64,000 nt of DNA from Deltaproteobacteria bacterium (GTDB lineage: Bacteria; UBA10199; JACPAL01; JAHFST01), in contig JAHFST010000004.1 in NCBI GenBank assembly GCA_023265625.1, positions 129,709-193,708 on the forward strand. Direction: 5' to 3'. Shown here piece by piece: positions 2,456 through 44,374 of this stretch. The notes beneath the pieces were generated by a model that was not told where the DNA came from, ran no database searches, and saw only the letters and a program-made list of their open reading frames with translations. Position 1 is the first letter of the stretch. Every line of letters begins with the position of its first letter. The position numbers and the translations under genes are program-made.

Positions 2456-2511
2456 CGATCGAACGGCCGCGCTCCCTAAATCCTTATCAGATCTGGTTTC
2501 CGATCGGATGG

Positions 2512-3636: not shown

Positions 3637-3654
3637 TAAAGATCATGCGGTTCG

Positions 3655-3668
3655 TTGATCCTGATCAT
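3655..3668. promoter_or_regulatory. FNR/CRP-family box TTGAT-CCTG-ATCAT
   Basis: One mismatch to the TTGAT-N4-ATCAA consensus. It is about 40 bp upstream of the dihaem cytochrome gene that heads the nar operon. Confidence 0.35.
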
Positions 3669-3704
3669 ACCTCTTGCAACGTTTTTTAGTCATTATCTTC
3701 CGTA

Positions 3705-4511
3705 ATGAAAAAGTTCGTCCTGTTTCTTTTCGCCTTCGCCCCCCTGGTTGTATTTAGCAATAATATCCACGCCTTCGATGCACCCGCGTATTTTACAAAA
3801 AACTGTAGCAGCTGCCACACCGTTGGCGGGGGTGACGACGTGGGTCCGGATCTCAAGGGGATTTCGGACCGGCGCAGCAAGGAATGGCTAACGACTTGGA
3901 TCCCATCTTCGCAATCCATGATCGAGAAAGGTGACCCCATCGGTGTTGAGCTCTTCAATAAATTTAAAAGGAAGAAGATGCCTGATCAAGATCTCAACCC
4001 GGAAGAAGTGGCGGCCCTGCTCGCTTTCATCAAGGCGGGCGGACCGGCGGAGGCTCCGATAGACAGTCGGCCGGCCTCCAGCGCCACTGAGGCAGACATT
4101 GCGAAGGGGCGAGAACTTTTTCTCGGAAAAATTCCTCTCAGCCATGGCGCTCCTGCCTGCATCTCCTGTCACGGGGCCGGTGGTGTCGGGATGTTGGGTG
4201 GCGGCACCTTCGCCCCCAACCTGACGCAGGCCTATTCCAAATATGAAGATAAGGGGCTCTCAAAGTCCCTCGCCAAACCGGGCTTTCGGGTGATGAAAGA
4301 GGTATTTGCCGACAAGCCGCTGACCGCCGACGAGGCCTTTGCCCTCAAGGCCTTCCTCTATCAGACTGACAAGGCAGGATATCAAGGCGGCGATGAGCAG
4401 AAAAAGTTTATTTTCCTGGGGATGGGCGGCTGCGCCGTTCTTCTTGGGGTGACGGACTTTATCTGGAGAAAACGCCGTCGCAAATCAACCAAACCGTGGG
4501 CGAAAGGTTAA
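3705..4511 (+). CDS. Membrane-anchored dihaem cytochrome c
   Basis: 268 aa. Features are an N-terminal signal peptide, two CxxCH motifs (CSSCH, CISCH), and a C-terminal TM helix followed by RKRRRK. Confidence 0.8.
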
Positions 4512-4513
4512 TT

Positions 4514-7500
4514 ATGCCGGAGAAAAAGAGAAATTGGATCGACGATCTTGTCTCCCCTGAAACACGGGACTGGGAAGAATTTTATCGCAATCGTTGGCAA
4601 TACGACAAGGTCGTCCGCAGCTCGCATGGGGTAAATTGCACCGGTGGCTGCTCCTGGAACATCCATGTGAAAGACGGGATTGTCACCTGGGAGATGCAGG
4701 CCCTCGATTATCCCCTGTTGGAAAAATCGCTGCCGGCTTACGAGCCCCGAGGTTGCCAACGCGGCATCTCGTTTTCCTGGTATCTCTACAGCCCGATTCG
4801 CGTGAAATATCCCTATATCCGGGGGGCCCTGCTCGATCTCTGGCAGGACATGAAGGCGAAGTACGGTGATCCGGTGGAGGCCTGGAAGGCGATTCAAGAC
4901 AATCCGGACCTGCGCGAACGCTATCAACGGGCCCGTGGCAAGGGCGGATTTCGTCGGATCGTGTGGGAGGAGGCCCTCGAGCTGATTTCCGCCGCCAACA
5001 TTCACACGGTCAAGAAATACGGTCCGGATCGTTTGACCGGGTTCTCGCCCATCCCCGCCATGTCGATGATCAGCTACGCCTCGGGGGCGCGTTTTCTCCA
5101 GTTGATGGGGGGCGTATGTCTCAGTTTTTACGATTGGTACTGCGACCTGCCACCGGCGTCACCGGAAATTTGGGGCGAACAAACGGATGTGGCCGAAAGT
5201 GCCGATTGGTTTAATTCAAAATTTCTCGCCGTGATGGGAGCCAATCTCAATATGACCCGTACGCCCGACTGCCACTTTGCCGCTGAGGCGCGGCACAACG
5301 GCACCAAGATGGTCGTTTTTGCCCCCGACTTCAATCAAGTGGCCAAGTATGCCGATCAATGGATTCCCATCCACGCCGGCCAGGACGGGGCCTTTTGGAT
5401 GTCGGTGGGACACGTCATCCTCAAGGAATACCATCACGAAAAGAAGATCCCTTATTTTCTGGAATACACCAAGCGGTACACGGATTGCCCTTTTCTGGTG
5501 GAACTTGTGAAAAAGGGAAATCATTACGAGCCCGGGAAATTCTTGCGCGCCAATCGACTGAAAAAATATGAAAAGACCGAGTTGGGGGACTGGAAATTTA
5601 TTGTCCTGGATGAAAAATCAGGCCAGCCCTTCTGTCCGAAGGGGAGCGTGGGCCATCGCTGGCAGGAAAAGCCGGGACAATGGAATCTGGAATGGAAGGA
5701 CAGTGTGGATGATACGGCGTTTGAACCCAGACTCTCACTCCTGGAGAACTCTCACGACATACTTCAAGTTCAGTTTCGGGAGTTTGGTAACGACACCGAA
5801 GGGCTGCGCGGCGTCCCGATCCAATATCTGGAAACCAATGAGGGTAAGGTAGCTGTCACCACCGTCTATGATTTGTTGATGGGTCAATACGGGGTCGCGC
5901 GCGGGCTTGCCGGCGACTATCCGACAGACTACGACGTTGAAGAGGCCGGCTACACCCCCGCGTGGCAGGAAAAATTCACCGGGGTCGGGAAGAAAACGTT
6001 GCTGCAATTCGCCCGCTCTTGGGCAGAGACAGCGGAAAAAACCGGTGGAAAATGTTCCATCATCATCGGCGCCGGCATTGATCATTGGTATCACAATAAC
6101 CTGATCTATCGCGCCGGCATCAATGCCCTGATGTTTTGCGGATGCATCGGTGTCAACGGCGGCGGTCTCAATCATTATGTCGGGCAGGAAAAATTGGCGC
6201 CCCAGGCGCCCTGGAGCTCCATTGCCTTCGCCAAAGACTGGCATGCGCCGTCACGGCTGCAAAACGCCCCTTCGTGGCACTATCTGCATTCCGACCAATG
6301 GCGTTATGAGGGGGAATTCAGCGAGTACCACAAGTGTCCGGACGATCCGCTGACCCGAGGACATACAGCGGATTTCAACATCCGGGCGGTCAAGAATGGT
6401 TGGCTCCCCTTCTATCCCCAGTACAACAAGAGCAATCTCGAGCTCTGCGCGGAGGCGACTAAGAATGGGGCCAAGAATGACGCCGAGATCGCCGCCTATG
6501 TTTTGGCGCAGGTAAAGGCAAAAAAGATTGAGCACTCGGTCGAAAACCCCGATGCCCAGGAAAACTGGCCCCGTGTCTGGTACATCTGGCGCGGCAATGC
6601 CTTGATGTCCTCTGCCAAGGGACATGAGTATTTTTTAAAACATTATTTGGGAACTCACACCAACACCATAGCCGATGAACTCGCCAAGGATAGTGTCAAG
6701 GAAATCAAATGGTGGGAACACGCCCCGCGCGGAAAAATGGACCTGATTGTGGACCTGAACTTCCGGATGGACACGTCGGCCCTCTACTCCGACATCATCC
6801 TGCCAGCGGCCACTTGGTATGAAAAAGCCGATCTCAATACCACCGATATGCATTCGTATATTCACCCACTTTCGAAGGCGATTACACCTGCCTGGGAATC
6901 ACGGAGTGACTGGGATATCTTTCGGTCTATTGCCAAGAAAACAAGTGAATTGGCAGAAAAGTACCTCCCCAACCCGGTGAAGGATGTCGTGACTCTCCCC
7001 TTAATGCACGATTCACCGGATGAAATGGCCCAGAAGCAGGTCCTCGATTGGAGCAAGGGAGAGTGCGATCCGATCCCGGGAAAATCCATGTACAAGTTTG
7101 CCGTGGTCGAGCGTGACTACACACAGATTTACCACAAATTTATTTCACTGGGTCCGCTCGCGCGCTCCGGCCTTGGGGCCCATGGGGTCAAATACGACAG
7201 CTCCGATTTTTACGATCAAATGATGAAGGATCTACCGACCATCGAGTGGGGCGGAAATAAATATCCCTCGATCAAAGAAGACATCGAGGCGGCGAATGCC
7301 GTCCTGCAACTGGCGCCAGAGACCAATGGAGAATTGGCCTATCGGGCCTATGAACACGTCGAAAAAAGGGTCGGACTGAAGCTGACTGATCTTGCCGCCG
7401 GTAGCCGTAACATCAGGACCAGCTATGCGGATCTTCAAGCCCAACCCCGTCGTCTCTTGAACAGCCCGATCTGGTCCGGACTCATGACGGATGGGCGGGC

Positions 7501-8143
7501 TTATTCAGCCTACACTTACAATATCGAAAAATTGGTTCCGTGGCGGACACTCACGGGACGACAGAGTTTCTACCTGGATCACGAGGCCTATATTGCCTTC
7601 GGCGAAAATCTGCCCGTCTACAAACCCTCGCCATCACCGGAGATGTACGGCGACCTGAAAAAGACCAAGATCGACGGCAAGGTGAAGGAAAAACGACTGA
7701 ACTATCTCACACCCCACGGCAAATGGCACATCCACTCCACTTACGGCGATACGCTGCGCATGCTCACCCTGTCGCGCGGGGCGGAGCCTTTCTGGATGAG
7801 CGAGACGGATGCGGCCGAACTTGAGATCAACGACAATGATTACGTCGAGGTACACAACGATCACGGCGTTGTGGTGACGCGCGCCTGCGTCAGTGCCCGT
7901 ATCCCCAAGGGAGTGTGCATCATCTACCACTCTCCCGAGCGCACCTACTCCGTGCCAAAATCACCGCTGCGCGGCAACCGGCGCGCCGGCGGGCATAACA
8001 GCCTGACGCGTGTCCGACTCAAACCAAATCTGATGGTGGGCGGCTATGCCCAATTTACTTATCATTTTAATTATTGGGGTCCGACGGGTTGCAACCGCGA
8101 TACCCATGTGCTGGTGAGAAAGTTGGATAAATTAATTTGGTAG
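4514..8143 (+). CDS. narG: Respiratory nitrate reductase alpha subunit NarG (a cytoplasmic NxrA-type enzyme cannot be excluded)
   Basis: About 1209 aa. The N-terminus [25 protein letters not shown] is the hallmark NarG Fe-S/Mo-bisPGD motif, and there is no Tat signal. The start was set at ATG (MPEKKRN) a few codons inside the ORF-track start. Confidence 0.93.
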
Positions 8144-8152
8144 GGAGACATC

Positions 8153-9643
8153 ATGGATATCCGTTCACAAATTGGCGTCGTCTTTCATCTTGATAAATGC
8201 ATCGGCTGTCATACCTGCTCGATCGCCTGCAAGAATGTCTGGACCGATCGAAAAGGCGCTGAATACATGTGGTGGAACAATGTCGAGACCAAGCCAGGCA
8301 CCGGTTACCCCACACAATGGGAAAATCAAGAAGAGTACAAGGGCGGCTGGGAGAAGAAGGGAAATAGCATCGTCCTGCGCGGGGCCGGAAAGCTCAAGGG
8401 GCTCAAGAATATTTTTCACAACCCAAATCTCCCAACCATCGACGACTATTACGAGCCGTGGACGTATCGCTACGAAGACCTGTTTACGGCCCCGGAAGGC
8501 AACGATCAGCCGACGGCGCGGCCGGTCTCCCTGATTACGGGCGAACCGATCGAGGTAAAGTCGGGTCCCAACTGGGATGACGACCTGTCCGGATCCCCCG
8601 ATTATGCCCGCAAGGATCCAAATTTTAAGAATCTCTCCGCCACCGAGCAGGAGGCGATGTTTCAAGTGGAAAAGATGGTGATGTTTTATCTCCCGCGGAT
8701 CTGCAACCACTGCCTGAATCCGGCCTGTGTCGCCGCTTGCCCGTCGGGGGCCATTTACAAGCGGGGCGAGGACGGTGTTGTCCTGATCAACCAGAATAAA
8801 TGCCGCGCCTGGCGGATGTGCGTAACGGCCTGTCCCTACAAAAAAACTTACTTCAATTGGTCCACCGGAAAATCGGAAAAATGCATCCTGTGTTACCCGC
8901 GCCTTGAGACGGGCCAGGCCCCCGCCTGCATGCATTCCTGCGTCGGACGGATCCGTTATCTCGGCGTTCTCCTCTACGACGCCGACCGGATCCACGAGGT
9001 GGCGTCCACCGAAGAGTCGCAATTGGTCGATTGGCAGCGTGACATGATCTTGGATCCCAACGATCCCAAGGTGATTGAGGAGGCCGTAAAAAATGGGGTT
9101 CATTTCTCGATCATCGAGGCCGCTCAGAAATCACCCGTGTACCGCTTCGTGAAGGAATGGAAGCTTGCCCTTCCCCTGCACCCCGAATATCGCACGCTGC
9201 CCATGCTGTTTTACGTGCCGCCGCTCTTGCCGATTTTAGGGACAACGGATGACGATATCTACGACACAACGACCGAAGGTCTCTTCTCCACCATCGAAAA
9301 AACCCGCCTGCCCATTCAATACTTAGCCAGCCTCTTCACCGCCGGCAATGAGGGAAAGATTCGCGAGGTCTTGAAAAAAATGATGGCCGTTCGGCTGCAT
9401 CGTCGCCACATCACCGTGGGCGACATGGACCCTGTGCTGGTGAGGAACGCCCTGCAGGAGGTTCAGACACCGCCGGACATGGCGGATGCGATCTATCGCC
9501 TCACGTCGCTCGCTAATTTCGAGGACCGATTTGTCATTCCGATGGCGCATCGTGAAGAGGCCATTGAGATGCTGGAATCCGTCTTCGAAGAAAAAGGCGC
9601 CACCGGGTTTGGCTTCCGCATGGCCCCAGAAAGGGGGCTCTGA
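8153..9643 (+). CDS. narH: Nitrate reductase beta subunit NarH
   Basis: 496 aa. It has four Cys clusters (CIGCHTCSIAC, CNHCLNPACVAACP etc.) typical of the NarH Fe-S subunit. Confidence 0.93.
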   Translation: MDIRSQIGVVFHLDKCIGCHTCSIACKNVWTDRKGAEYMWWNNVETKPGTGYPTQWENQEEYKGGWEKKGNSIVLRGAGKLKGLKNIFHNPNLPTIDDYYEPWTYRYEDLFTAPEGNDQPTARPVSLITGEPIEVKSGPNWDDDLSGSPDYARKDPNFKNLSATEQEAMFQVEKMVMFYLPRICNHCLNPACVAACPSGAIYKRGEDGVVLINQNKCRAWRMCVTACPYKKTYFNWSTGKSEKCILCYPRLETGQAPACMHSCVGRIRYLGVLLYDADRIHEVASTEESQLVDWQRDMILDPNDPKVIEEAVKNGVHFSIIEAAQKSPVYRFVKEWKLALPLHPEYRTLPMLFYVPPLLPILGTTDDDIYDTTTEGLFSTIEKTRLPIQYLASLFTAGNEGKIREVLKKMMAVRLHRRHITVGDMDPVLVRNALQEVQTPPDMADAIYRLTSLANFEDRFVIPMAHREEAIEMLESVFEEKGATGFGFRMAPERGL

Positions 9644-10236
9644 TGCAAACCGACTACCCTTTCTTGGCCGATCTTTTAAAATATCCGACCGGCCAATTAA
9701 GAGTTCGATTGGCAGACTGTCAAAACGAGACTTTGTCTCCGTTGATCGATTACGTGCGCAGCGTCTCCGACACGGAATGGGAGGAACTCTACATCCGCAC
9801 CTTTGATATTCAGGCCATCTGCTATCTGGAGATCGGCTACGTCCTGTTCGGAGAGGATTACAAGCGTGGCCACTTTCTCGTCAAGTTGCAGGGCCTGCAA
9901 CGCGCCCATGACAATGACTGTGGCACGGAATTATCGGATCATCTGATCAACATCCTGACCCTCCTGCCCAAAATGCAGGATCGGGAAGAGGCGCGTGACA
10001 TGGTAGAGCGGCTCATCCTGCCCGCCATGCAAAAGATGCTGCAGGGTTTCTCCAAAGGGGGAAACGTCTATCAGGCGGTGTTGCAGACCATCGTGGCAGT
10101 CCTCAAAAAAGACTACGATTGTACCGACCCCATTGATGAAAAGCCCGGTCGCGATTTTAGCCACTACGACGCCTCGCTCGAATTGCCTTCTTACAACCCC
10201 AGCACGAATCCCTGGGATATTTGGAGGGAACCGTGA
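9643..10236 (+). CDS. narJ: Nitrate reductase assembly chaperone NarJ
   Basis: 197 aa in the NarJ/TorD family. It lies between narH and narI and overlaps the narH stop. Confidence 0.85.
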   Translation: MQTDYPFLADLLKYPTGQLRVRLADCQNETLSPLIDYVRSVSDTEWEELYIRTFDIQAICYLEIGYVLFGEDYKRGHFLVKLQGLQRAHDNDCGTELSDHLINILTLLPKMQDREEARDMVERLILPAMQKMLQGFSKGGNVYQAVLQTIVAVLKKDYDCTDPIDEKPGRDFSHYDASLELPSYNPSTNPWDIWREP

Positions 10237-10940
10237 AAGACTACCTATTATTTGGAGTCGCTCCCTATGTTGCCGTGACGCTGCTCTTGTCGGTCTCCCT
10301 CTGGCGTTTCTTTTTCACGCGTTACAAGTTTTCCAGTCTCTCCTCTGAATTTCTTGAGAGTAAGGACCTCTTTTGGGGATCGGTACCGTGGCACTACGGC
10401 ATTTTGGTGCTTTTTTTGGGGCATTTGATCGGGTTTCTGTTTCCGCGTGAAGTGACCCTTTGGAACAGCATTCCGATCCGTCTGATTATTTTGGAGGCCA
10501 CCGCCCTAACTTTCGGACTCCTAGCCTTGGTGGGCCTGGTGCTGCTGATCAAACGTCGTATGACTCATCCTCGTATTCGTGTCGTCACCTCCTGGATGGA
10601 TATTGTCGTCCTGGTCCTGTTACTAATCCAGGTCGTTTCAGGATTGAGCACGGCCATCATCGATCGGTGGGGATCGTCGTGGTATGTGGCCACATTGGTT
10701 CCTTACGTTCGGTCCGTATTGTCTCTAGCCCCGAATGTCGAACTGATCTCGGGGATGTCGTGGCTGGTCAAAACACACGTCTTGGGGGCCATTGTCATCA
10801 TTGGCATCCTGCCGTTTACCCGACTCGTCCATTTTCTCGTTCCCCCGGTTTCTTACCTTTGGCGTCCGTACCAGTTGGTCATTTGGAACTGGGATCGAAG
10901 GACAATTCGAGTTCCGTCAACGAAAAAAAAGGCGCATTGA
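10221..10940 (+). CDS. narI: Nitrate reductase gamma subunit NarI (dihaem b)
   Basis: 239 aa with 5 TM helices and conserved His ligands. Its stop overlaps the narK1 ATG by 1 nt. Confidence 0.9.
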   Translation: MEGTVKDYLLFGVAPYVAVTLLLSVSLWRFFFTRYKFSSLSSEFLESKDLFWGSVPWHYGILVLFLGHLIGFLFPREVTLWNSIPIRLIILEATALTFGLLALVGLVLLIKRRMTHPRIRVVTSWMDIVVLVLLLIQVVSGLSTAIIDRWGSSWYVATLVPYVRSVLSLAPNVELISGMSWLVKTHVLGAIVIIGILPFTRLVHFLVPPVSYLWRPYQLVIWNWDRRTIRVPSTKKKAH

Positions 10941-12436
10941 TGATTGGCGAAAAACAACAAGCGGTTACCGCCCTATTTTTCAGCACACTGGCCTTCACGG
11001 TCTGCTTTGCCTGCTGGATGATGAACGGCGTGCTCGTGACCTTTCTCGTCGACAATGGCGCTTATGGTTGGAACAAGGCGCAGATCGGCTGGTTGATCGG
11101 GATTCCGGTGCTGACAGGCTCCATCATGCGTCTCCCGTTGGGAATGCTGACCGATAAATATGGCGGCAAGATTATCCTGACACTACTCATGATCGTCTCG
11201 GCCCTTCCGATGTATCTGATGAGTCGCGCCGATAGTTATGCTCAATTCATTTTAGGTAGCCTGGGTTTTGGACTGGTAGGGGCCTCTTTCTCTGTGGGGA
11301 TCGCCTACACCTCGGTCTGGTTCCCCAAAGAAAAACAGGGAACCGCACTCGGGATCTTTGGTATGGGCAACGCGGGGTCCGCCCTGACCAGTCTCGGTGC
11401 GCCGCTGATCCTGAAACATTTGACGAATAATGCCGCTGCCATCGAGGGCTGGCGGAATCTTCCCAAGATTTATGCGGCCATTCTTTTGGGAATGGCCGCT
11501 CTTTTTTTTCTAGCAACACATGCAAGAAAGGTTGCCTCTGAGGGCAAGACCCTTGTCCAGCAATTGGCTCCCTTGAAAGAAATCCGTGTTTGGCGTTTCG
11601 GCCTGTATTATTTTCTGGTCTTCGGCGGTTTCGTGGCCCTCGCCCAGTGGCTGATCCCCTACTACGTGAATGTCTACACCATGTCGATTGCGATGGCCGG
11701 CATGATGGCCTCGATCTTTTCCCTCCCGTCGGGGGTCATTCGCGCCTTTGGCGGATGGCTCTCCGACAAATTCGGCGCGCGTCGCGTGATGTATTGGGTC
11801 TTGGGTTCGTGTTGTGCGGCCTCCCTGCTCCTGATCGTTCCAAGGATGGATATCTACTCTCCAGGCGGTGGTGTCATGGCCCTGTCGGGTGGGACCGTGT
11901 CTGAATTGACGGACCATGAAATTGTCATCAGCGGCATCGTGACCAAAAAATACGCGTTCAAACCTAAAGAAACGGTGCAGGGCTTGGCAGAAGATAGAGA
12001 CATCCTGATTCTGCCCACCTCCCGCTTTTGGCAGGAACCGGCGGTAAAAGTCGGAGACGTTGTCAAAAAGAAACAGCTCTTGGCCAAGGGGCTCACCCAC
12101 GTTTATTTCCAGGCAAACGTCTGGATCTTCACCTTTCTGGTCTTTGTCGTCGGCATCATGATGGGCATTGGCAAGGCCGCGGTCTACAAACACATCCCGG
12201 ATTACTTCCCTCAAGAAGTCGGCGTGGTGGGAGGGATCGTCGGCGTCATTGGCGGGCTGGGTGGATTCATTGGCCCCATTATCTTCGGCTATCTGCTCGA
12301 TTTAACCGGCATCTGGACCACCGCCTGGATGTTCTTTGCCGCCCTGTCGCTCATCAGCCTGCTGTGGATGCATTGGGTCATACAAAAAATGATGCGGCAA
12401 AAGGTGCCGGGACTCATGAACCAGATGGAGACATAA
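10940..12436 (+). CDS. narK: MFS nitrate/nitrite transporter NarK (type 1), with a ~90-aa soluble insertion between TM9 and TM10
   Basis: 498 aa from ATG (MIGEKQQ). It has 12 TM helices and MFS/NarK motifs. The ORF-track N-terminal extension (10460..10939) is in the narI region and was rejected. Confidence 0.85.
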   Translation: MIGEKQQAVTALFFSTLAFTVCFACWMMNGVLVTFLVDNGAYGWNKAQIGWLIGIPVLTGSIMRLPLGMLTDKYGGKIILTLLMIVSALPMYLMSRADSYAQFILGSLGFGLVGASFSVGIAYTSVWFPKEKQGTALGIFGMGNAGSALTSLGAPLILKHLTNNAAAIEGWRNLPKIYAAILLGMAALFFLATHARKVASEGKTLVQQLAPLKEIRVWRFGLYYFLVFGGFVALAQWLIPYYVNVYTMSIAMAGMMASIFSLPSGVIRAFGGWLSDKFGARRVMYWVLGSCCAASLLLIVPRMDIYSPGGGVMALSGGTVSELTDHEIVISGIVTKKYAFKPKETVQGLAEDRDILILPTSRFWQEPAVKVGDVVKKKQLLAKGLTHVYFQANVWIFTFLVFVVGIMMGIGKAAVYKHIPDYFPQEVGVVGGIVGVIGGLGGFIGPIIFGYLLDLTGIWTTAWMFFAALSLISLLWMHWVIQKMMRQKVPGLMNQMET

Positions 12437-12437
12437 T

Positions 12438-13766
12438 ATGGAAAACGATCCAAACATTGCAGAGTGGACCCCGGAGGATCCTGTATTTTGGCAAAAAACC
12501 GGCAGCCGTATCGCGTGGCGCACGCTCATTTTGACCACCATGAGCCTCACGCTCTCTTTTGCCACCTGGTTTGTGATCAGCGCGGTCGTGGTGCGTCTCC
12601 CCAACATCGGATTCAAATTTGACAACATGCAACTCTTCTGGCTCACCGCCATGCCGGGGCTGGCGGGAGGCACGCTGCGCATCATCCATATGTTTTTAGT
12701 CCCCCTCTATGGCACCCGAAAGGTCATCTCCACGGCGACCTTCCTCAAGATCCTTCCCATGTTGGGCCTTGGCTTTGCCGTAATGAACCCCAACACGCCT
12801 TTTTGGGTTTTCATGGTCCTGGCCTTCTTCGCCGGATTTGGTGGCGGTGACTTTTCATCCTTCATGCCCAGCACCAGTATCTTCTTCCCCAAACGCCTGC
12901 AAGGGACGGCCCTGGGGATTCAGGCCGGGATTGGAAATTTTGGCGTCAGCCTCACGCAATTTATCACCCCCTGGATTATCGGGTTTGCCTTTTTGGGAGG
13001 AACCCTGGGTGGGCCCCAAACCTTTACCAAGGGGACGGTCGTCAAATCCCTTTGGCTCCAGAATGCCGCCTTTTGGTACATCCCGTTCCTCCTCGTGATT
13101 GGCCTATTATGCGCGCTCTACTTAAGACGAATTCCCGTCACGGCCACCTTCTCACAACAACTCGACATCTTTAAGGAGAAGCATAATTGGATCATGACCT
13201 CTCTCTACGTGATGACCTTCGGCTCCTTTTCCGGCTACGCCGCGGCATTCCCATTGTTGATCAAATCGGTCTACGGAAAATTTCCCGATGCGCCCGATCC
13301 GCTCCGCTATGCCTTCTATGGCCCTCTGATCGGCTCTACAGTTCGTGTCCTGATGGGGCCACCCTCGGATAAATGGGGCGGGGCGATCATCACACAATGG
13401 AGTGGGATTGGCCTGATCATTTGTGCCCTGATCGTACCCAACTATCTTACCCCAACCTCCATGGAACAATTTCCACATTTCGTCGCCTTGATGCTCGGAC
13501 TTTTTTTCTTTGCCGGAGTGGGCAATGCCTCCACCTTTCGTCAAATCCCCGTGATTTTTCCGCCACGACAGGCCGGGGGCGTATTGGGATGGACGGCCGC
13601 CGTGGCCGCTTACGGACCGTTTATTTTTTCCACCTTGATCGGCGTCGTGATGGCCAAAACCGGTTCCCCCAAAAATTTCTTTTACGGCGCCGCCGTATTC
13701 TACGCCGTCAACGTGGTCATTAACTGGTGGTATTACCAAAGAAAGGGATGTGAGAAACCGTGCTGA
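12438..13766 (+). CDS. narK: MFS nitrate/nitrite antiporter NarK2
   Basis: 442 aa with 12 TM helices and NarK-family signatures (GFGGGDFSSFMP). It is the second of a tandem pair. Confidence 0.85.
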   Translation: MENDPNIAEWTPEDPVFWQKTGSRIAWRTLILTTMSLTLSFATWFVISAVVVRLPNIGFKFDNMQLFWLTAMPGLAGGTLRIIHMFLVPLYGTRKVISTATFLKILPMLGLGFAVMNPNTPFWVFMVLAFFAGFGGGDFSSFMPSTSIFFPKRLQGTALGIQAGIGNFGVSLTQFITPWIIGFAFLGGTLGGPQTFTKGTVVKSLWLQNAAFWYIPFLLVIGLLCALYLRRIPVTATFSQQLDIFKEKHNWIMTSLYVMTFGSFSGYAAAFPLLIKSVYGKFPDAPDPLRYAFYGPLIGSTVRVLMGPPSDKWGGAIITQWSGIGLIICALIVPNYLTPTSMEQFPHFVALMLGLFFFAGVGNASTFRQIPVIFPPRQAGGVLGWTAAVAAYGPFIFSTLIGVVMAKTGSPKNFFYGAAVFYAVNVVINWWYYQRKGCEKPC

Positions 13767-14332
13767 GAAAAGTTTTCATCGGCACGGCACTGCTCGCGAC
13801 GATCATTTTGATCATCTCTTTAATCATTCAGGAATCGCGACGGGTGGGCAGCAATCAGGGTTACGAACCCGACCAGCCGATCGCTTACTCTCACAAGGTT
13901 CACGCCGGGGATAACAAGATCCCCTGCCTCTACTGTCACTTTGGCGCTGAACAGGGCCGCCACGCCGGGATCCCACCGGCCAATGTTTGCATGAACTGTC
14001 ATAGCAAGATTAAAAAAGATTCGCCCGAGATCGTGAAGCTTCGCGAGGCCATTGATAAAAACCAACCCATCGATTGGATCAAGGTGCATCGGTTACCGGA
14101 CTTTGCCTACTTTAATCACAGCCAACATGTGACGGCGAATGTCCCCTGTCAGGAATGTCACGGACCGGTCGAAACCATGACCCGGATGCGCCAAGATCAA
14201 CCGCTCACGATGGGGTGGTGCATCAGCTGTCACCGTGAGCGTGGCATCATGCCACCGGAAGAGCATCAAGACTTGAATCGGGACAAGACAAAGGCAATCG
14301 GCGGGATGGATTGCGCCAAATGTCATTATTGA
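13760..14332 (+). CDS. actA: Alternative complex III subunit ActA (pentahaem cytochrome c)
   Basis: 190 aa. It has an N-terminal TM anchor and five CxxCH motifs (CLYCH, CMNCH, CQECH, CISCH, CAKCH). It is first in a canonical actABCDEF order. Confidence 0.85.
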   Translation: MLRKVFIGTALLATIILIISLIIQESRRVGSNQGYEPDQPIAYSHKVHAGDNKIPCLYCHFGAEQGRHAGIPPANVCMNCHSKIKKDSPEIVKLREAIDKNQPIDWIKVHRLPDFAYFNHSQHVTANVPCQECHGPVETMTRMRQDQPLTMGWCISCHRERGIMPPEEHQDLNRDKTKAIGGMDCAKCHY

Positions 14333-14333
14333 T

Positions 14334-17192
14334 ATGAATAGCGACGATAAAAAATACTGGAAGGGTCTTGAAGAACTTCGTGAAGAACCACAATTTCTCG
14401 AAGTGCGCTCCAAGGAGTTTCCCGAAGAAATCTCCCAGACCACGCGCCGCAATTTTTTAAAACTGATGGGTTTTAGTTTCACGGGTGCCGCCCTGGCCGC
14501 CTGCGCGCGCATGCCTGTCGAAAAGGCCATCCCGTTCCTGATCAAGCCGGAAGAGGTCGTGCCGGGAGTGGCCAATTGGTACGCCACCACCTGCGCGGGC
14601 TGTACGGCCTCCTGCGGCCTTTTGGCAAAGGTCCGAGACGGTCGCCCCATCAAAATCGAGGGCAATGCCGAATCGCCCCTGTTTCAGGGAGGCGCCTGCG
14701 CCGTGGGACAGGCGACGGTGCTCTCGCTCTATGATGATGAACGATTAAAAAAACCTCTTTGGCTCGGAAATGCCGCTTCCTGGGAAGAGATCGATCAATC
14801 CATTGGAAAGGAACTGAAGGACATCGTCAACCGAGGCGGCAAAATAGTCATCCTCTCCGGAACCATCGTCAGCCCGACCACTCGAGCGCTGCTCAACGAG
14901 TGGTGCCAGACATTTACCAATGCTAGGCATGTTGTTTACGATGCGGTCTCCGCTTCCGCAATCCTCTCGGCCAACGAAAAAAGTTTTGGGGTGAAGGCCC
15001 TGCCCCACTATCGGTTCGATTTGGCAAAACTGGTGGTCGGATTGAACGCCGACTTTCTGGGCACCTGGATTTCGCCCGTTGAATTCACCCGAGCCTACAC
15101 CCAGCATCGCATGCCCAGTCATGACATGACGCGACACATCCAGTTCGAGTCCGGCATGTCGCTGACGGGCAGCAATGCCGATCGGCGCATCCCGATCAAC
15201 CCCTCGGAAGAAGGACCCACCGCCCTCACCCTGCTGAAAGAAATTTCCAACCTAAAAAGCGGCGCAGGTTCCAGTAACGAAACAGCCCAGGATCTTTGGA
15301 AACACCGGGGCGAGTCCCTGGTCGTCAGTGGCTCGAACCATGTGGATGTCCAAATCGTCGTCAATGCGATGAATGCCCTGTTGGGTAACATCGGCAAGAC
15401 GGTCGATCTGGACAATGTCTCCTTGCAAAAACAGGGCGTCGACGATGAGATGAACCGCCTCGTGGACGAGATGAACCGGGGAGAAATCCAGGGCCTGATC
15501 CTTTACGGGGTCAATCCGGCTTATGATTTTCCCGATTCAGATCGGTTCATTTCAGGCTTAAAAAAAGTCCCCTGCAGCGTTTCATTCTCGGATCGACTCG
15601 ATGAAACCTCGAGTTTGGTGCAGGCCGTCTGTCCGGATGCCCATTTCCTGGAATCGTGGAATGACGCGGAGCCGGTTCAGGGGGCCTTGAGCCTGACTCA
15701 ACCGGTTTTGCGACCGCTCTTTGCAACCCGATCCGCCCAGGAGAGCTTGCTTACATGGATGGGAAAGAATGTCGATTACTACACCTACCTCAGGGACTAC
15801 TGGCGCGAGAAAATCTACCCCTTGAGTACGGGCCTCTATCTCACCTTCGACAACTTCTGGGATCTCTCGGTGCAAAATGGGGTATTATCTTTACCCGCAC
15901 AAACGCCAACCGAGAGAAATTTTTCAGGCAGCGTCCCGATCGCCTTCCAAAATCCACCCAAGGGTCTTGAAGTGCATCTTTACGAAAAAATCGGCCTCCG
16001 CGACGGCCGTCATGCCAACAATCCCTGGCTTCAGGAGCTCCCGGATCCCGTGACAAAAATCACCTGGGACAACTACGCCGCTCTTTCGCCCAAAACCGCC
16101 TCAGCCCTGGGACTAGAGGAGGGCGATGTCGTTCTTGTGAAAAACGACTATGTCTCTCTGGAACTACCCGTACAGATCCAACCGGGACAAGCCGCCCTGA
16201 CTGTTTCTGTCGCCTTGGGTTATGGACGAACCCATTGCGGTAAGGCGGGAAACAACGTCGGAGTCAATGCCTATCCCCTGATCCCCCACCCAACCGGTTT
16301 TCGCGTGGAAAAGACGGGGCGAAAGGTCGCGCTGGCCGCCACGCAAACCCATCACTCGATGGAAGGACGTCCCATCGTCAAGGAAACGATCCTGGCCGAA
16401 TATATCAACAATCCTTCCGCCGGAAACGAGGAACACGAAAAACTCCTCACCCTGTGGGAGGAATGGCCAAAAGAAGGTCGCGCGTGGGGGATGTCCATCG
16501 ATCTAAACGCCTGCACCGGTTGCTCCGCCTGCATCATCAGTTGCCAGGCGGAGAATAACGTCCCCGTGGTTGGCAAAGACGAAGTGACGCGACGCCGTGA
16601 AATGCATTGGATCCGATTGGATCGTTACTACAGCGGGCCGGAGGAAAATCCCGAAACGGTGCATCAACCCATGATGTGCCAACATTGCGGAAATGCCCCC
16701 TGCGAGACGGTCTGCCCGGTGCTCGCCACGGTGCACAGCACCGACGGCCTGAATCAACAAGTCTATAACCGCTGCGTCGGGACGCGTTATTGCGCGAACA
16801 ATTGTCCCTACAAAGTGCGGCGCTTCAACTGGTTCGATTACGCCCACAATGACCAGTTTGATTACACCATGAACAGCGAGCTGGGCACGATGGTCTTAAA
16901 TCCGGACATCGTGGTCCGTTCCCGCGGCGTGATGGAAAAATGCTCGCTGTGCATCCAACGCATTCAGGAAGGCAAGCTGCAAGCCAAGAGAGAGGGGCGC
17001 CCCTTGAAAGATGGAGAGATCCGGGTGGCCTGCGAGCAATCGTGTCCCGCCCAGGCGATTACATTCGGGGATTTAAATGAGAAAGAAAGCCGTGTGGCCC
17101 AACAAAATCACGACGGACGTTTTTATCATGTCCTGGAGGAACTCAATGTCAGGCCAGTGGTCGGGTATTTAACAAAGGTAAGGAACAAATGA
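14334..17192 (+). CDS. actB: ACIII subunit ActB (Mo-bisPGD-like domain fused to a 4Fe-4S ferredoxin domain, Tat-exported)
   Basis: 952 aa. It has the Tat motif [10 protein letters not shown] and a C-terminal ferredoxin Cys cluster ([28 protein letters not shown]). Confidence 0.88.
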
Positions 17193-18550
17193 TTCATCCC
17201 CCATTGATCGACGGTCGTCCAACCGTACAGCAGGTGACGAAGGACATCTGCCGTCCCTTGCATGCACGACCGGGGCTAGCCTGGATCGCGGCATTTTTGT
17301 GCGCCCTGACGGCCCTCCTCATGGGTGTCGGCCTGGTCACCTATGAAATCAGGACCGGCATCGGGACCTGGGGCTTGAACAAGACCATTGGCTGGGCCTT
17401 TGATATTACCAACTTTGTTTTTTGGGTCGGGATCGGGCATGCCGGGACCTTGATTTCGGCGATCCTGCTGCTCTTCCGGCAAAAATGGCGGACGTCCATC
17501 AACCGGGCCGCCGAGGCGATGACCATCTTTGCCGTGCTTTGTGCGGCCGTCTTTCCCGTGATCCATATGGGGCGGCCCTGGCTGGCCTTCTGGGTTTTTC
17601 CCTATCCCAACACGCGCGGCCCCTTGTGGGTAAATTTTCGTTCGCCGCTCTTGTGGGATGTTTTTGCCATCAGCACCTATTTCACCATCTCGTTGGTCTT
17701 TTGGTACATCGGGATGATCCCGGATCTGGCCACTTTTCGGGATCGCGCCGAAAAAAAATGGCAAAAAGTTGTTTACGGTTTTTTGAGTGTCGGCTGGAAC
17801 GGCTCCAACCGGACGTGGAGTCGTTACGAGACGCTCTGTTTGATTTTGGCGGGATTGGCCACACCCCTGGTCGTCTCCGTCCATACGATTGTGAGCATGG
17901 ATTTTGCCACGTCCGTCATCCCCGGTTGGCATACAACCATCTTCCCGCCCTACTTCGTGGTCGGGGCCGTTTTTTCGGGTTTTGCGATGGTGACGACGCT
18001 GCTCATTGTCACGCGCAAGGTGATGAACCTCGAGAATTACATCACCATGAGACATTTGGAGGCCGTCGCCAAGGTCATCCTCACAACGGGATCCATTGTC
18101 GGCCTCGCCTATCTCACCGAACTCTTTACGTCCTGGTATAGCGGCAGTTCTTACGAACAATTCGCGTTCAAAAATCGCATCATCGGCCCCTATGGCTGGA
18201 CCTACGTCATCATGGTGACCTGCAATGTCATCACCCCGCAATTCCTGTGGGTCAAGAAAATCCGCACAAACATTGTCACGCTCTTCATCATTTCTATCAT
18301 CGTTAATATCGGGATGTGGTTCGAACGCTTTGTCATCATCATGACGTCCCTGCATCGAGATTACCTGCCTTCAAGCTGGGCCATGTACCGACCCACCTTT
18401 GTCGAAGTGGGCACGTTGATCGGCACCTTTGGGCTGTTCTTCACCTGTTTTCTCATTTTTGCGCGGGTCTTACCGGTCATTGCAATGTGGGAGGTAAAAC
18501 CATTGGCGGCAGAACTGATTTCGCCTCATCGGGAGTCTTCTCATGGTTAA
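17189..18550 (+). CDS. actC: ACIII subunit ActC (NrfD/PsrC-like quinol-interacting membrane subunit)
   Basis: 453 aa with about 10 TM helices and NrfD-family character. It overlaps the actB stop by ATGA. Confidence 0.85.
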
Positions 18551-19067
18551 AAATTTTATGGTCGGGGTTTTTTCCGATGAGCAAAAATTGCTGAAAACCG
18601 TCTGCGCCCTGCGCGGGGTAGGATTTCAGATTCACGACGTGTTTACACCCTATGTGGTTCATGGGTTGGACGACGCCATGGGGCTGCGTCGATCACGCTT
18701 GGGCGTCGTCACCTTTCTGGCGGGTCTGACAGGGCTGGCACTGGCCATGGCCTTGCAGTTTTGGACCGCGGTCTTTGACTGGAGGATCAACGTGGGGGGT
18801 AAACCCGACAACTCCACCCTCGCGTTTCTTCCGGTGGCCTTTGAAATCACAGTCTTGATCGGCGGATTGGCCACGGCCCTTGCCTTCTTTCTCCGAAGCC
18901 AACTGTTTCCAGGTTCCAAGCTGAGAATTTTTAACCGGCACATCACCGATCATCTTTTTGCCGTCGTGCTTGAGATAAGGGATGCCTCCATCAATCCGGA
19001 CAAGGCCAGGAAGATTTTTTGGGACATGGGAGTCTTGGAGGTTCGTGAAGAAAGTGTAAACACATGA
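18543..19067 (+). CDS. actD: ACIII subunit ActD (DUF3341-like)
   Basis: 174 aa. It has a small N-terminal soluble domain plus a TM helix, in the expected position. Confidence 0.75.
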
Positions 19068-19630
19068 AATTATCTCCGCTCATTCCTTATATCGCCATCG
19101 CTTGTTCTTTGATGGCCTGTGAACGTAATCCCAAAAAAACGGGATATGAACTCCTGCCGGATATGGCGCATTCCATGCCTTACGACGCCTTTGCGCCAAA
19201 CCCCGTCACCCGGGATGGAAAAACACTCCAACTGCCCCCACCGGGCTCCATTCCGCGCGGTTTTCTGCCGTATCATTACGGCAACACACCCGAAGAAGCG
19301 GAACGCGCCGGCCGCGAAGTGACCAATCCCATTCCGGTGACGCCGGCGTCCCTGGCGCGCGGCAAGAAGGTCTATGAAACTTTTTGCTCCGTCTGTCACG
19401 GCGATCAAGGCAAAGGCGATGGCCCCTTGATCCCCAAGTTCCCGAATCCTCCATCCTACACGTCGAAAAAAGTTCAGGATTATCCGGAAGGACGGCTCTT
19501 TCACATCATCACCCAAGGATCTGGGATGATGGCCTCCTACGCCTCGCAGATTTCCCCGGAAGACCGATGGAAGGTGGTGCAGTACGTCCAGACCTTGCAA
19601 CACCCGCATCCGGTGGAGGTGGCCAAATGA
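19064..19630 (+). CDS. actE: ACIII subunit ActE (lipoprotein monohaem cytochrome c)
   Basis: 188 aa. It has a lipobox (SLMAC) and a single CSVCH haem motif. Confidence 0.85.
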   Translation: MKLSPLIPYIAIACSLMACERNPKKTGYELLPDMAHSMPYDAFAPNPVTRDGKTLQLPPPGSIPRGFLPYHYGNTPEEAERAGREVTNPIPVTPASLARGKKVYETFCSVCHGDQGKGDGPLIPKFPNPPSYTSKKVQDYPEGRLFHIITQGSGMMASYASQISPEDRWKVVQYVQTLQHPHPVEVAK

Positions 19631-20769
19631 ATCAGGAACGCTTTCGCATCTCAAATAAACAGAGAAAGTTTGCCTTCTCTTTGTTGGGGCTGGGCGGCTT
19701 GGCAGTGGCCATTGCCTTTTTTCTGGATCCACAACGCGCCTGGGCCAACATCCTGCTGAATAACGTCTACTTTTTATTCTTGGCCGTTTCCGGACTCGTC
19801 TTTATCGCCATCCATTATTTGACCAGCGCGGGTTGGTGGGTGGGACTGCGTAGGATTCCGGAGGCGATGACCGCGTTCATCCCCGTGGGCGGGGGATTGA
19901 TGCTCCTGCTGTTCTTTGGCCGGCATTCCCTCTATGAATGGACGGATACCGAAACCGTGGCGCACGACGCCGTCTTGTTGGGAAAGGCCGCCTATCTCAA
20001 CACGCCCTTCTTCTTTGCCCGAATGATTGGCATCATCGCCATCTGGAGCCTCTTCGCCATGATGTTGCGAAAAAGATCCATCGAACAAGATCGCACGGGA
20101 GGTTGGTCGGCCCATCAAAACTTATACCGTCTCTCGGCGCTATTCCTCCCCGTCTTCGCCGTGACCCTCACCATCGCCAGTGTGGATTGGTTGATGTCGC
20201 TGGAACCTCACTGGTTCAGCACCATTTTTACGTTCTATACATTTTCAGGGCTTTTCCTGAACGGCATCACTTTCATCACCTTGGCGACCGTCCTGCTAAA
20301 ACAACGCGGTTACTTGCAGAGCTTCCTGAATGATGACCACCTGCATGATCTGGGCAAACTCGTTTTTGCCTTTTCCAGCTTCTGGGCCTACATCTGGGTC
20401 TGTCAATATCTCCTGATCTGGTACAGCAACATCCCCGAAGAGACGGTCTACTACCATCTGCGCACCGACATGAATTGGGGTTGGCTGTTTTTGCTAAACT
20501 TGGCCATGAATTGGGCCATCCCTTTCCTGGTCTTGCTGCCACGCTCTTCCAAGCGGAACCCCGCCGTACTCCAACGCGTCTGCGTTCTTCTTTTGATCGG
20601 GCATTGGCTAGACCTCTATATCATGGGGTTTCCACGTGTCGCCTCACTCCGCAGTATTGGCCCCTTGGAGGTCTTGATCACCATGGGTTATGCCGCTGGG
20701 TTCTTTTTAATCACCGGCCGAGCCTTGAGCCAAGCCCCCCTCGCCCCAAGGAACGACCCCTATCTATGA
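19627..20769 (+). CDS. actF: ACIII subunit ActF (second NrfD-like membrane subunit)
   Basis: 380 aa from ATG (MNQERF) that overlaps the actE stop, with about 10 TM helices. The ORF-track upstream extension was rejected. Confidence 0.8.
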   Translation: MNQERFRISNKQRKFAFSLLGLGGLAVAIAFFLDPQRAWANILLNNVYFLFLAVSGLVFIAIHYLTSAGWWVGLRRIPEAMTAFIPVGGGLMLLLFFGRHSLYEWTDTETVAHDAVLLGKAAYLNTPFFFARMIGIIAIWSLFAMMLRKRSIEQDRTGGWSAHQNLYRLSALFLPVFAVTLTIASVDWLMSLEPHWFSTIFTFYTFSGLFLNGITFITLATVLLKQRGYLQSFLNDDHLHDLGKLVFAFSSFWAYIWVCQYLLIWYSNIPEETVYYHLRTDMNWGWLFLLNLAMNWAIPFLVLLPRSSKRNPAVLQRVCVLLLIGHWLDLYIMGFPRVASLRSIGPLEVLITMGYAAGFFLITGRALSQAPLAPRNDPYL

Positions 20770-20835: not shown

Positions 20836-21516
20836 ATGATTGAGCTTCCCTCTTACAACAACCCTCCCCTGAAACGGCATGTGAACAAAGAGGTGGAGGA
20901 CCTCCCCTCACCCATGGATCCTCCCGAGGCCTATGCGCCTTCCAACGTGGGAGAAATCACTGCGGGCGAACTTTCCGCTCCCCTCCAATCCTTGATCCAG
21001 GATCATGAGGAGTTTCTTAAAATCCTGACGGCCTTTGACCGCGCCTTGGTGGAGCTCAAGGAAAGGGCGTGGAAATTCACGCCCGAGATCAGCGCGGTCT
21101 TGAAACGTTTTTTTCAGTGGACGGACGAAGAGATGCCGCGTCATTCCCGCAAGGAGGAGAAGGCGCTCTTCCCAATTTTAAGCGAAAAGTTTTTGGCCTC
21201 CGGTGAACACAGCCCGGGCGCACAACCGGTGACGCCCGTCGATGTCATGGAGGCGGATCATCGGACCGTCGAGCTTGGTGTCAATCTTGTGTTTAATTTG
21301 TTAGGACTCGCAGCGCGCATCAAGGATGCTGAGGCACGAGACCTGCTCTTTGAGCACGCCTTTCATCAAGGACAGGAAATTGTCGAGGTCATGAAACTGC
21401 ACATTTACAAAGAGAATACCACGCTCTTCCCTCTCGCCCAGAGACTCTTGAGCGCAGAGGAAATGTCCGTGGTGGAGAGAAAAATGAATTTTAATACTCC
21501 AATCCTACAGACCTAA
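20836..21516 (+). CDS. Hemerythrin-like (HHE cation-binding domain) protein, possibly NO/iron-sulfur repair related
   Basis: 226 aa. His/Glu-rich motifs (DHEEF, HSRKEEKALFP, EADH) fit the hemerythrin fold. Confidence 0.5.
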   Translation: MIELPSYNNPPLKRHVNKEVEDLPSPMDPPEAYAPSNVGEITAGELSAPLQSLIQDHEEFLKILTAFDRALVELKERAWKFTPEISAVLKRFFQWTDEEMPRHSRKEEKALFPILSEKFLASGEHSPGAQPVTPVDVMEADHRTVELGVNLVFNLLGLAARIKDAEARDLLFEHAFHQGQEIVEVMKLHIYKENTTLFPLAQRLLSAEEMSVVERKMNFNTPILQT

Positions 21517-21598
21517 ACACCCATAGGTGCATGGCGAGTAGGACGGGGCGGCGCGGGAAACGGCGCCGTCTTCCGAAGTTCCTTCGAGTTTAGAAGGA

Positions 21599-22885: not shown

Positions 22886-23127
22886 GGGTAAAGCTCCTTT
22901 TTTTTGCGACTATCCGAGATTATTTTCGAACGGGAGAAAGGGAAGTGACGATCAATCTCCCTAAAACCGTTCGGGAGATTTTTATGAGTCTTTTTGAAGA
23001 TAAAACAACGGCCCAGCAATTTCTCTCCTCGGTCCGCTTTGCGATTAATTGCGCCTATGTGTCGCATGAGACACCCGTGAAAGATGGAGATGAGCTAGCC
23101 GTCATTCCACCGGTGAGCGGGGGGTAG
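22882..23127 (+). CDS. moaD: Molybdopterin synthase sulfur-carrier subunit MoaD
   Basis: 81 aa with a ubiquitin-like fold. It ends in GG. Confidence 0.8.
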   Translation: MRVKLLFFATIRDYFRTGEREVTINLPKTVREIFMSLFEDKTTAQQFLSSVRFAINCAYVSHETPVKDGDELAVIPPVSGG

Positions 23128-23128
23128 C

Positions 23129-34891: not shown

Positions 34892-35045
34892 TTTTGGATT
34901 CCCCCACCCAATATGACAAAAAAGTAGGCTGCAAACAACGCGCCAAGTTATTTGAGAAAAATCCGTGCCTATTTTTTATTTTTGCGGGGCAAGAACGGGA
35001 AATAATGGGACAATCTTTCCCCCAACAGCAGGAAAAAATCGCCCC

Positions 35046-36857: not shown

Positions 36858-37009
36858 AAAAATCTCCTTAATTTGAAACAGCGGAATCTTCCTAACGCCA
36901 TCGAAAGACGACGTCCAGGGCAAAATAAATCCTTGGATCTTATTTTGCCTTCAGTTCTCGCCTCTGTTTTAGTTGAATTTTTTTGATATTTTCTGCAACA
37001 GGAAGACTC

Positions 37010-37711: not shown

Positions 37712-37782
37712 GGAGCACTTCCTAACCGTTGCAATAAATCATTACTGGAAAATATCCAGCAGAATGTTAATAGCCTCCCCCT

Positions 37783-39225: not shown

Positions 39226-39245
39226 GGGTTCAAAATTTTGAACCC

Positions 39246-41251: not shown

Positions 41252-41281
41252 CGTGTTTTATGATTCAATAGCCTTCTAATA

Positions 41282-44372: not shown

Positions 44373-44374
44373 CA

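Follow-up and report, generated by a model that had tools for sequence, protein, structure and literature searches.

We analysed a 64,000-nucleotide stretch of contig JAHFST010000004.1 from an uncultured deltaproteobacterium of the UBA10199 lineage (hereafter the window), in which a predicted Thermus-type nitrate reductase operon runs without interruption into the genes of a predicted complete alternative complex III (ACIII). The two halves form an unbroken array of thirteen + strand genes, narC-narGHJI-narK1-narK2-actABCDEF, at positions 3705–20769, and within one clade this linkage is conserved. Recurrent pairing in many uncultured bacteria suggests that the two respiratory machines cooperate. 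Each half belongs to known families, and what appears to be new is the combination, its conservation, and a derived module consisting of NarC, a NarI that retains only haem bD, and a pentahaem protein. No description of the nar–act operon was found in full-text literature searches, which had the main ACIII reviews (Refojo 2010, 2012) outside their scope, so an earlier mention is possible; the NarC/NarI(bD)/pentahaem module was likewise not found in the same searches.

The same gene identities and coordinates emerged from the list of open reading frames, from Pfam and NCBIfam, and from gene callers applied independently to identical contigs of metagenomes. A first-pass annotation, made earlier from the letters of the window, had proposed the same uninterrupted same-strand array, and all thirteen genes were recovered at the positions it gave, with every assignment upheld. 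The genes are as follows.

3705–4511, + strand: narC, periplasmic dihaem cytochrome c
4514–8143, + strand: narG, catalytic molybdenum-bis(pyranopterin guanine dinucleotide) (Mo-bisPGD) subunit, predicted to be cytoplasmic
8153–9643, + strand: narH, iron–sulfur subunit; TIGR01660, 696 bits (cut-off 524)
9643–10236, + strand: narJ-like assembly chaperone, divergent
10233–10940, + strand: narI, dihaem cytochrome b membrane anchor, quinol oxidase; TIGR00351, 133 bits (cut-off 106)
10940–12436, + strand: narK1, NarK-family major facilitator superfamily (MFS) nitrate/nitrite transporter, 498 aa; best NCBIfam match TIGR00886, 193 bits, below cut-off
12438–13766, + strand: narK2, NarK/NarU-type MFS nitrate/nitrite transporter, 442 aa; TIGR00886, 282 bits (below the cut-off of 312), and NarU NF011608, 3e-82
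13760–14332, + strand: actA, pentahaem cytochrome c anchored by a transmembrane helix at its N-terminus
14334–17192, + strand: actB, fused molybdopterin-like (B1) and iron–sulfur (B2) subunit
17189–18550, + strand: actC, NrfD-type quinol-binding membrane subunit; PF03916, 5e-26
18543–19067, + strand: actD; PF11821, 6e-49
19064–19630, + strand: actE, monohaem cytochrome c, probable lipoprotein
19627–20769, + strand: actF, second NrfD-like membrane subunit

All twelve junctions between narC and actF lie within −8 to +9 nt, with eight overlaps of 1–8 nt (−1, −1, −4, −4, −4, −4, −7 and −8) and four gaps (+1, +1, +2 and +9). Independent gene callers placed the narG start at ATG 4514 (1209 aa), the alternative GTG 4496 giving a 16-nt overlap with narC. 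The narK2/actA junction is a 7-nt overlap, which leaves no space for a separate act promoter outside coding sequence; the nearest sizeable spacers are 68 nt upstream of narC and 66 nt downstream of actF. Because the junctions are tight, and the nar-to-act junctions of relatives are tight as well, narC to actF is best read as a single transcript, in line with the unit of roughly 17 kb that the first-pass annotation had deduced. The identical gene order was observed on contigs of several independent assemblies, which ruled out an assembly artefact or chimera.

The nar half is predicted to encode a Thermus-type four-subunit NarCGHI in the narCGHJI-K-T arrangement, since its NarC is homologous to Thermus NarC and its NarG is nearer to the Thermus than to the Escherichia coli enzyme. 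NarC has a signal peptide, haem motifs at residue 34 (CSSCH) and residue 152 (CISCH), and a C-terminal transmembrane helix (residues 235–253) followed by RKRRRK. Compared with Thermus thermophilus NarC it showed 30% identity (E value 3e-15); in a search of plasmid records only T. thermophilus proteins matched most of its length, and the matched gene was the narC heading narCGHJI on plasmid pTHTHE1601. The AlphaFold2 model of NarC (predicted local distance difference test score 88.5) displayed a pair of class-I cytochrome c domains with a long C-terminal helix, and a Foldseek comparison with the PDB returned single cytochrome c domains only, with no whole-chain relative and no match to QcrC. 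NarG scored 1523 bits on TIGR01580 (cut-off 1084) and was 61–62% identical to Thermus NarG, compared with 47–48% for the E. coli, Ralstonia or Rhizobium types. Thus the window holds both of the Thermus-type traits, an anchored periplasmic dihaem NarC homologue encoded first and a Thermus-like NarG. In Thermus, NarC is a fourth subunit that binds NarI and is required for maturation of Nar, and it is implicated in delivering electrons for the reduction of nitrite and nitric oxide (NO), respiration of both depending on it when the bc complex is repressed (PMC7694296; PMC10609526).

The N-terminus of NarG contains the FS0 motif HGVNCTGGC (H-x3-C-x3-C) and no twin-arginine (Tat) motif, bearing out the earlier remark that NarG lacks a Tat signal, whereas ActB has one. 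On these two grounds the active site of NarG is predicted to face the cytoplasm, which fits the presence of two NarK-family transporters. NarG, NarH and NarI all exceeded the NCBI equivalog cut-offs; NarJ reached 27 bits on TIGR00684 (cut-off 59 bits) with no Pfam match, its position and size being kept in all of the relatives. Histidines H54, H64, H182 and H200 of the window NarI align to E. coli H56, H66, H187 and H205. In the E. coli protein H56/H205 bind the cytoplasm-side haem bP and H66/H187 the periplasm-side haem bD (PMC5338063), and this alignment assigns H54/H200 to haem bP and H64/H182 to haem bD.

The act half is predicted to encode a complete six-subunit ACIII with its genes in A–F order. 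The CxxCH motif occurs five times in ActA, which has a transmembrane segment at residues 5–23 and falls into the cytochrome c7/c3 Pfam families, whereas ActE has a single CxxCH at residue 108, an N-terminal Cys-containing signal sequence and a PF13442 domain. ActB carries the Tat-variant signal TRRNFLKL, belongs to TIGR04519 and matched the PDB chains 6BTM_B (1e-212) and 6F0K_B (1e-188), and ActF matched 6F0K_F (7e-69) and 6BTM_F (3e-61). From homology to 6BTM, 6F0K and 6LOD, the complex would be a quinol:cytochrome c (or high-potential iron–sulfur protein) oxidoreductase with proton translocation. ACIII generally takes the place of bc1 (PMC9386147; PMC9270275), and it is able to replace bc1 in denitrifiers (PMC9270275). 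No oxidase genes were found in the window, downstream of act or elsewhere, and none adjoins act, in support of the first-pass interpretation. The control locus from Daejeonella oryzae (Bacteroidota; L047) showed ACIII followed by COX2-COX1-CtaA-CtaB-COX3, the canonical layout known from the literature (PMC9386147).

The same arrangement, nar and then act directly, was present in about 17 other loci. A genome scan with ActB revealed nar directly upstream of act in metagenome-assembled genomes (MAGs) labelled Myxococcota (L006), 'bacterium' (L007), Deltaproteobacteria (L026, complete), UBA10199 (L028), Vicinamibacterales (L072) and Chitinophagales (L079, partial). The neighbourhoods of NarC homologues gave the same order in L086, L087, L092, L093 and L094 and probably in L095, and a metagenome scan with a NarC profile added L097, L102, L103, L107 and L108. 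Five of the relatives have spacers of 3–23 nt between nar and actA, and the probable case L095 has one of 118 nt. Among full nar operons with a scorable NarC and enough downstream DNA, act followed in 11 out of 11 (window excluded) when NarC scored at 42% identity or above, whereas at 40% identity or less it followed only in L072 and probably in L095. Act does not follow nar in L096, L130, L141, L156, L158, L163, L165, L168, L172 or Thermus. Two of these distant NarC-type operons without ACIII, L130 (17483–18145) and L163 (17434–18102), have a gene for a monohaem cytochrome c of ~220 aa after narI. Carriers of the nar–act unit were found in many soil, sediment and wastewater metagenomes.

A further set of about 30 loci contains homologues of narC and narI directly upstream of actA without narG, narH, narJ or narK. 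Most are labelled Terriglobia or 'Ca. Angelobacter', and the others Kofleriaceae and other Polyangia. In a neighbour-joining tree of ActB these remnant loci were monophyletic in 50 of 50 bootstraps and nested among the nar-linked ACIIIs, the nar-linked set itself being monophyletic in none of 50; in a Thermus-rooted tree of NarI the remnants formed a single clade in all 100 bootstraps. Thermus and all of the other relatives possess narCGHJI, and parsimony therefore favours a loss of narGHJ. The remnant NarI proteins had all kept the bD ligands (E. coli H66/H187) and lost the bP ligands (H56/H205) (29/29), whereas all four histidines were retained in every NarI from a full operon (32/32). Both haem motifs of NarC were retained in the remnants, the C-terminal helix being missing in Terriglobia. 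In Polyangia, NarC and NarI are fused in a protein of ~600 aa with Cytochrom_C and Nitrate_red_gam domains (L023:7465–9270, and also L025, L037 and L050, from Kofleriaceae and other Polyangia MAGs), and the fusion in L023 lends indirect support to a binding of NarC to NarI. Because the remnants keep narC and narI beside act and lose only the bP ligands, the conserved partner of ACIII is therefore NarC together with the periplasmic half of NarI.

All of the remnant loci with enough DNA also encode a protein of ~950 aa with five haem motifs (57–95% identity between loci), either after actF or, in L113, L116 and L123 where act is absent, directly after narI. This protein was not found in the window or in any full nar locus, and it had no PDB, NCBIfam or solid Pfam match. 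In the remnants this highly conserved periplasmic protein stands in for NarGH as the co-located partner, with act in between or not, which suggests that NarC serves as an outlet towards enzymes of the periplasm. In our reading, the catalytic subunits were swapped for a periplasmic partner and the NarH-facing haem was discarded, while the quinol-site haem, NarC and usually ACIII were kept. The set of narC, bD-only narI and pentahaem gene in Terriglobia and Polyangia (L008–L021, L023, L025, L027, L037, L050 and L111–L129; e.g. L009:7678–19592) seems to be a respiratory module, not described before, that descends from a nitrate reductase.

Our preferred model, held with moderate confidence, is an anoxia-regulated operon whose two halves are functionally linked and form a branch through a shared periplasmic c-haem node. 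One half of this nitrate-respiring unit would be the Thermus-type NarCGHI with its active site in the cytoplasm, NarJ acting as chaperone and the two NarK transporters bringing nitrate in and nitrite out. The other half, ActABCDEF, would oxidise menaquinol and probably translocate protons, with its iron–sulfur centres and c-haems on the periplasmic side. Menaquinol would also be oxidised by NarI, from which electrons would flow inwards through bD, bP and NarH to NarG and nitrate. NarC would be the physical link: positioned on the periplasmic face of NarI beside haem bD, it would form, as a bD/NarC pair with the ActA/ActE haems of ACIII, a common c-haem node, and the pair could also pass electrons outwards. 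Through this node quinol electrons would reach periplasmic acceptors, with ACIII as the energy-conserving route in the role that bc1 has in classical denitrifiers. The observed gene identities, cofactor motifs, predicted topology, compactness, clade-wide synteny and pattern of gene and haem-ligand loss are its starting points, and beyond them we infer co-transcription and the shared periplasmic haem wire, along with a NarC that touches ACIII, the course that the electrons take and the acceptor that receives them in the periplasm. The model is close to the idea in the first-pass annotation, with NarC added as the physical link. The gene identities and the single unit of that earlier interpretation found support; its proposal that ACIII feeds downstream denitrification steps found none, with no nir, nor or nos gene in the window or within 9 kb upstream of it.

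Several points weigh against the preferred model. The same 64 kb and 9 kb were also empty of any soluble cytochrome c gene. The only NO reductase (NOR) seen in a relative, beside the L028 cluster, is a quinol-dependent one (qNOR) and so needs no cytochrome c donor. It lies in a stretch of the UBA10199 MAG (L028:16672–22403) in which actF is followed by genes for a hemerythrin, a DGC-domain protein, a divergent NorR-like sigma-54 activator, RIC/ScdA and qNOR, an NO-detoxification context beside the nar–act operon. NarC does not require ACIII, since NarC-type nar operons without ACIII exist in Thermus, L096, L130, L141, L158, L163 and L165. In L087 the region 3465–9956 encodes an aa3-type oxidase operon (COX2, COX1, COX3, COX4_pro, COX3), a porin and a Crp/Fnr regulator directly upstream of narC; the oxidase operon lies ~3 kb from narC, and ACIII there could thus also serve oxygen respiration, although no other relative has a cox operon nearby. 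Finally, the evidence is computational and the trees are neighbour-joining only.

A tighter coupling, in which NarC is a fixed haem wire joining ACIII and NarGHI in series into a nitrate 'respirasome', is possible but in our estimate rather unlikely. Menaquinol would then be oxidised mainly by ACIII, and electrons would run from ActA/ActE through NarC, bD, bP and NarH to NarG, so that nitrate reduction would be cytochrome-c-dependent and proton translocation by ACIII would add to the charge separation across NarI. Consistent with this, in every locus examined act is joined to nar itself and not with nir or nos, genes for a periplasmic reductase are missing from the neighbourhood, and the NOR neighbouring L028 is of the quinol type. 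NarC also shares its architecture with QcrC, the dihaem, C-terminally anchored cytochrome that wires actinobacterial complex III to complex IV (NF050122, 9e-12, below cut-off), a Nar-type enzyme that exchanges electrons with cytochrome c has an accepted precedent in the cytoplasmic nitrite oxidoreductase (NXR) running in reverse (PMC7694296), and the drop of ~0.5 V from menaquinol to nitrate (our own estimate from textbook potentials) leaves room for a second coupling site. However, NarI keeps the quinol-site haem bD and all four histidines, and direct quinol oxidation would still be possible; flow from a c-haem to bD is probably uphill, judging from the E. coli bD potential; and in L113, L116 and L123 NarC and NarI(bD) accompany the pentahaem protein without ACIII, in what looks like a self-sufficient, outward-feeding quinol dehydrogenase. 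We consider it less probable again that the two halves are merely co-regulated, with ACIII as the organism's complex III, expressed with nar at low oxygen without any interaction with NarC or NarI, and serving an oxidase or other acceptors. The general replacement of bc1 by ACIII (PMC9386147; PMC9270275) and the cox operon near the L087 cluster would agree with this, and a shared operon is by itself no proof of contact. Co-regulation cannot explain, however, why narC and a bP-less narI were kept upstream of actA after the loss of narGHJ and narK in about 30 loci from two phyla, and it sits poorly with linkage in 11 out of 11 operons within the NarC clade at 42% identity or more.

A reversed enzyme, i.e. 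a Nitrobacter-type cytoplasmic NXR whose electrons would exit by way of NarI and NarC and go on to cytochrome c and an oxidase, with ACIII running backwards to reduce quinone for NADH synthesis, appears very unlikely. The Nitrobacter-type NXR has an nxrX gene, encoding a protein like peptidyl-prolyl isomerases, between the genes of its alpha and beta subunits. No nxrX-like gene is present at this place in the window, where narG and narH are separated by 9 nt. NarG is 61–62% identical to the proven nitrate reductase of Thermus, CRP/FNR-type boxes lie upstream of narC, and the neighbours concern NO stress or nitrite: NnrS and hemerythrin in the window, NorR, RIC and qNOR in L028, a formate/nitrite transporter in L007 and a globin in L086. 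Nor were carbon-fixation genes found in the window. Points in favour of this reading are the existence of a very similar Nitrobacter cluster headed by a cytochrome c (PMC7694296), the close relationship of cytoplasmic NXRs to NarG (PMC6050957), the frequent occurrence of ACIII in some nitrite oxidisers (PMC10734462) and the aa3-type oxidase operon upstream in L087. The first-pass annotation had regarded the choice between NarG and NxrA as undecidable from sequence alone; no Nitrobacter NxrA was among the plasmid matches, and Thermus identity, the CRP/FNR-type boxes and the NO-stress neighbours now lean towards NarG, with the catalytic direction a prediction.

Energy conservation in Nar-type nitrate respiration has been taken as the NarI redox loop only, and the partners known for ACIII are oxidases and photosystems. 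That a conserved operon joins nar and act through NarC suggests either a bc1-independent, energy-conserving branch to periplasmic acceptors or an extra coupling site for nitrate reduction. Were the respirasome to be true, the energy yield of Nar-type nitrate respiration would be roughly doubled, and no earlier ACIII would have had an anaerobic terminal reductase as its partner in place of an oxidase or photosystem. The remnant loci of Terriglobia and Polyangia, with NarC, bD-only NarI and a 950-aa pentahaem partner, would represent a previously undescribed respiratory module, in which the anchor of a nitrate reductase was recycled: the periplasm-side haem b and NarC were kept, the cytoplasm-side haem and the catalytic subunits were dropped, and the anchor would now serve another pentahaem enzyme, as yet uncharacterised, in Acidobacteria that are common in soil. 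The finding provides a testable handle on the electron-transfer role of NarC, which has long been unclear, and given the many soil, sediment and wastewater carriers the nar–act unit may matter for models of nitrate turnover.

The same-strand array exceeds positions 3705–20769, with a porin gene and nnrS upstream (1259–3636) and further genes downstream up to 28309. This extension on both sides is, like the Thermus type of NarC and the clade-wide linkage of nar and act, an addition to what the first-pass annotation had described. The flanking features are as follows.

1138–1149, + strand: CRP/FNR-type palindrome TGATAAGAATCA, ~110 nt upstream of the porin gene
1259–2455, + strand: outer-membrane porin, phosphate-selective O/P type, ExtI-like; PF07396, 2e-15, and NF040900 porin_ExtI, 1e-13, below cut-off
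2512–3636, + strand: nnrS, haem/copper membrane protein associated with NO stress; PF05940, 3e-27
3634–3667, + strand: tandem CRP/FNR-type boxes TGATAAAGATCA and TGATCCTGATCA (starts 3634 and 3656) in the 68-nt nnrS–narC spacer
20836–21516, + strand: hemerythrin-like di-iron protein; PF01814, distant RIC/YtfE relative (TIGR03652, 1e-8, below cut-off)
21485–21630, + strand: molybdenum cofactor (Moco) riboswitch; Rfam RF01055, 42.1 bits (gathering score 36)
21623–26730, + strand: moeA-moaD-moaE-mobA-moaA-moaC/moaB-tauE (Pfam), biosynthesis of the cofactor needed by NarG
up to 28309, + strand: ICMT-like gene after tauE

The tandem boxes probably constitute an anoxia- or NO-responsive promoter of the operon. 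The motif TGAT-N4-ATCA occurred seven times in the window against 1.2 expected, and three of the seven copies lie in two promoter spacers, one before the porin gene and two between nnrS and narC. Comparable palindromes were found upstream of narC in L086, L087, L088 and L093, and a gene for a Crp/Fnr-family regulator is located directly upstream of narC in Thermus as well as in L087. Scans of positions 1000–31500 for sigma-70 promoters and intrinsic terminators were uninformative about the transcript limits, the promoter-like counts being at chance level and no convincing internal terminator being detected. The strongest terminator-like site (11474–11499, + strand), a perfect 11-bp GC-rich hairpin with a T-run inside the narK1 coding sequence, could reflect attenuation or merely the codon content of a membrane protein. 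Downstream of the operon, hemerythrin homologues also follow actF in L007, L026 and L028; the hemerythrin showed no similarity to the DUF2249 protein encoded downstream of the Thermus nar operon and was rejected as its counterpart. The Moco riboswitch shares sequence with the 3' end of the hemerythrin gene and extends into the start of moeA, and therefore the cofactor-biosynthesis genes, an operon of seven, form a separately controlled unit; in all, eight molybdenum-cofactor or associated genes lie downstream up to 28309.

The nar–act region may lie on or beside a genomic island. Upstream it is flanked by a tRNA-Gly(CCC) gene (173–245, − strand) and a Gp49/HigB-like pair (423–1043), and further upstream L090:2023–9785 contains PhD/PIN and AbiEi/AbiEii genes; GC content is 47–50% in the upstream flank against 54–56% in the cluster, and RhuM, Bro-N and HipA genes lie downstream (32557–45595). 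Elsewhere in the window, a protein of 1219 aa with ten CxxCH motifs and weak MtrC/MtrF-like and LVIVD-repeat matches (56671–60330, + strand), preceded by a 566-aa protein without family (54974–56674), may be an extracellular electron-transfer cytochrome. There are also two paralogous genes for CHASE2-adenylate/guanylate cyclases (42150–44372 and 51561–53471, + strand) and one for a cNMP-binding DUF1003 protein (60366–61214).

Among known systems, the Nitrobacter NXR cluster differs from the window in that the latter lacks nxrX and has FNR-type boxes and NO-stress genes, and we know of no ACIII linkage described for Nitrobacter. The two have in common a cytochrome c gene heading a narGHJI-like set and an active site predicted to face the cytoplasm (PMC7694296; PMC6050957). 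QcrC of the actinobacterial bc1–aa3 supercomplex resembles NarC by analogy only: it has two class-I cytochrome c domains and a C-terminal anchor and forms a fixed wire that connects a quinol oxidase complex with a terminal enzyme, but membership of NarC in that family was rejected (NF050122, 45 bits against a cut-off of 200) and the partner complexes differ. The ACIII–caa3 systems of Rhodothermus marinus (6F0K) and Flavobacterium johnsoniae (6BTM) have the same six subunits in the same ActABCDEF order; their clusters continue with cytochrome oxidase genes, whereas in the window nar precedes act, and hemerythrin and Moco genes come after it. The nar half has its closest counterpart in narCGHJIKT of T. 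thermophilus, where NarC has been proposed to substitute for the repressed bc complex (PMC7694296). The window shares with it the order of narC, G, H, J and I followed by two MFS transporters, the C-terminally anchored periplasmic dihaem NarC, the close NarG and the Crp/Fnr-type regulator context. Although no act genes follow the transporters in Thermus, the operon of the window, from a mesophile-like uncultured bacterium with 53% GC, continues at this point into a full ACIII.

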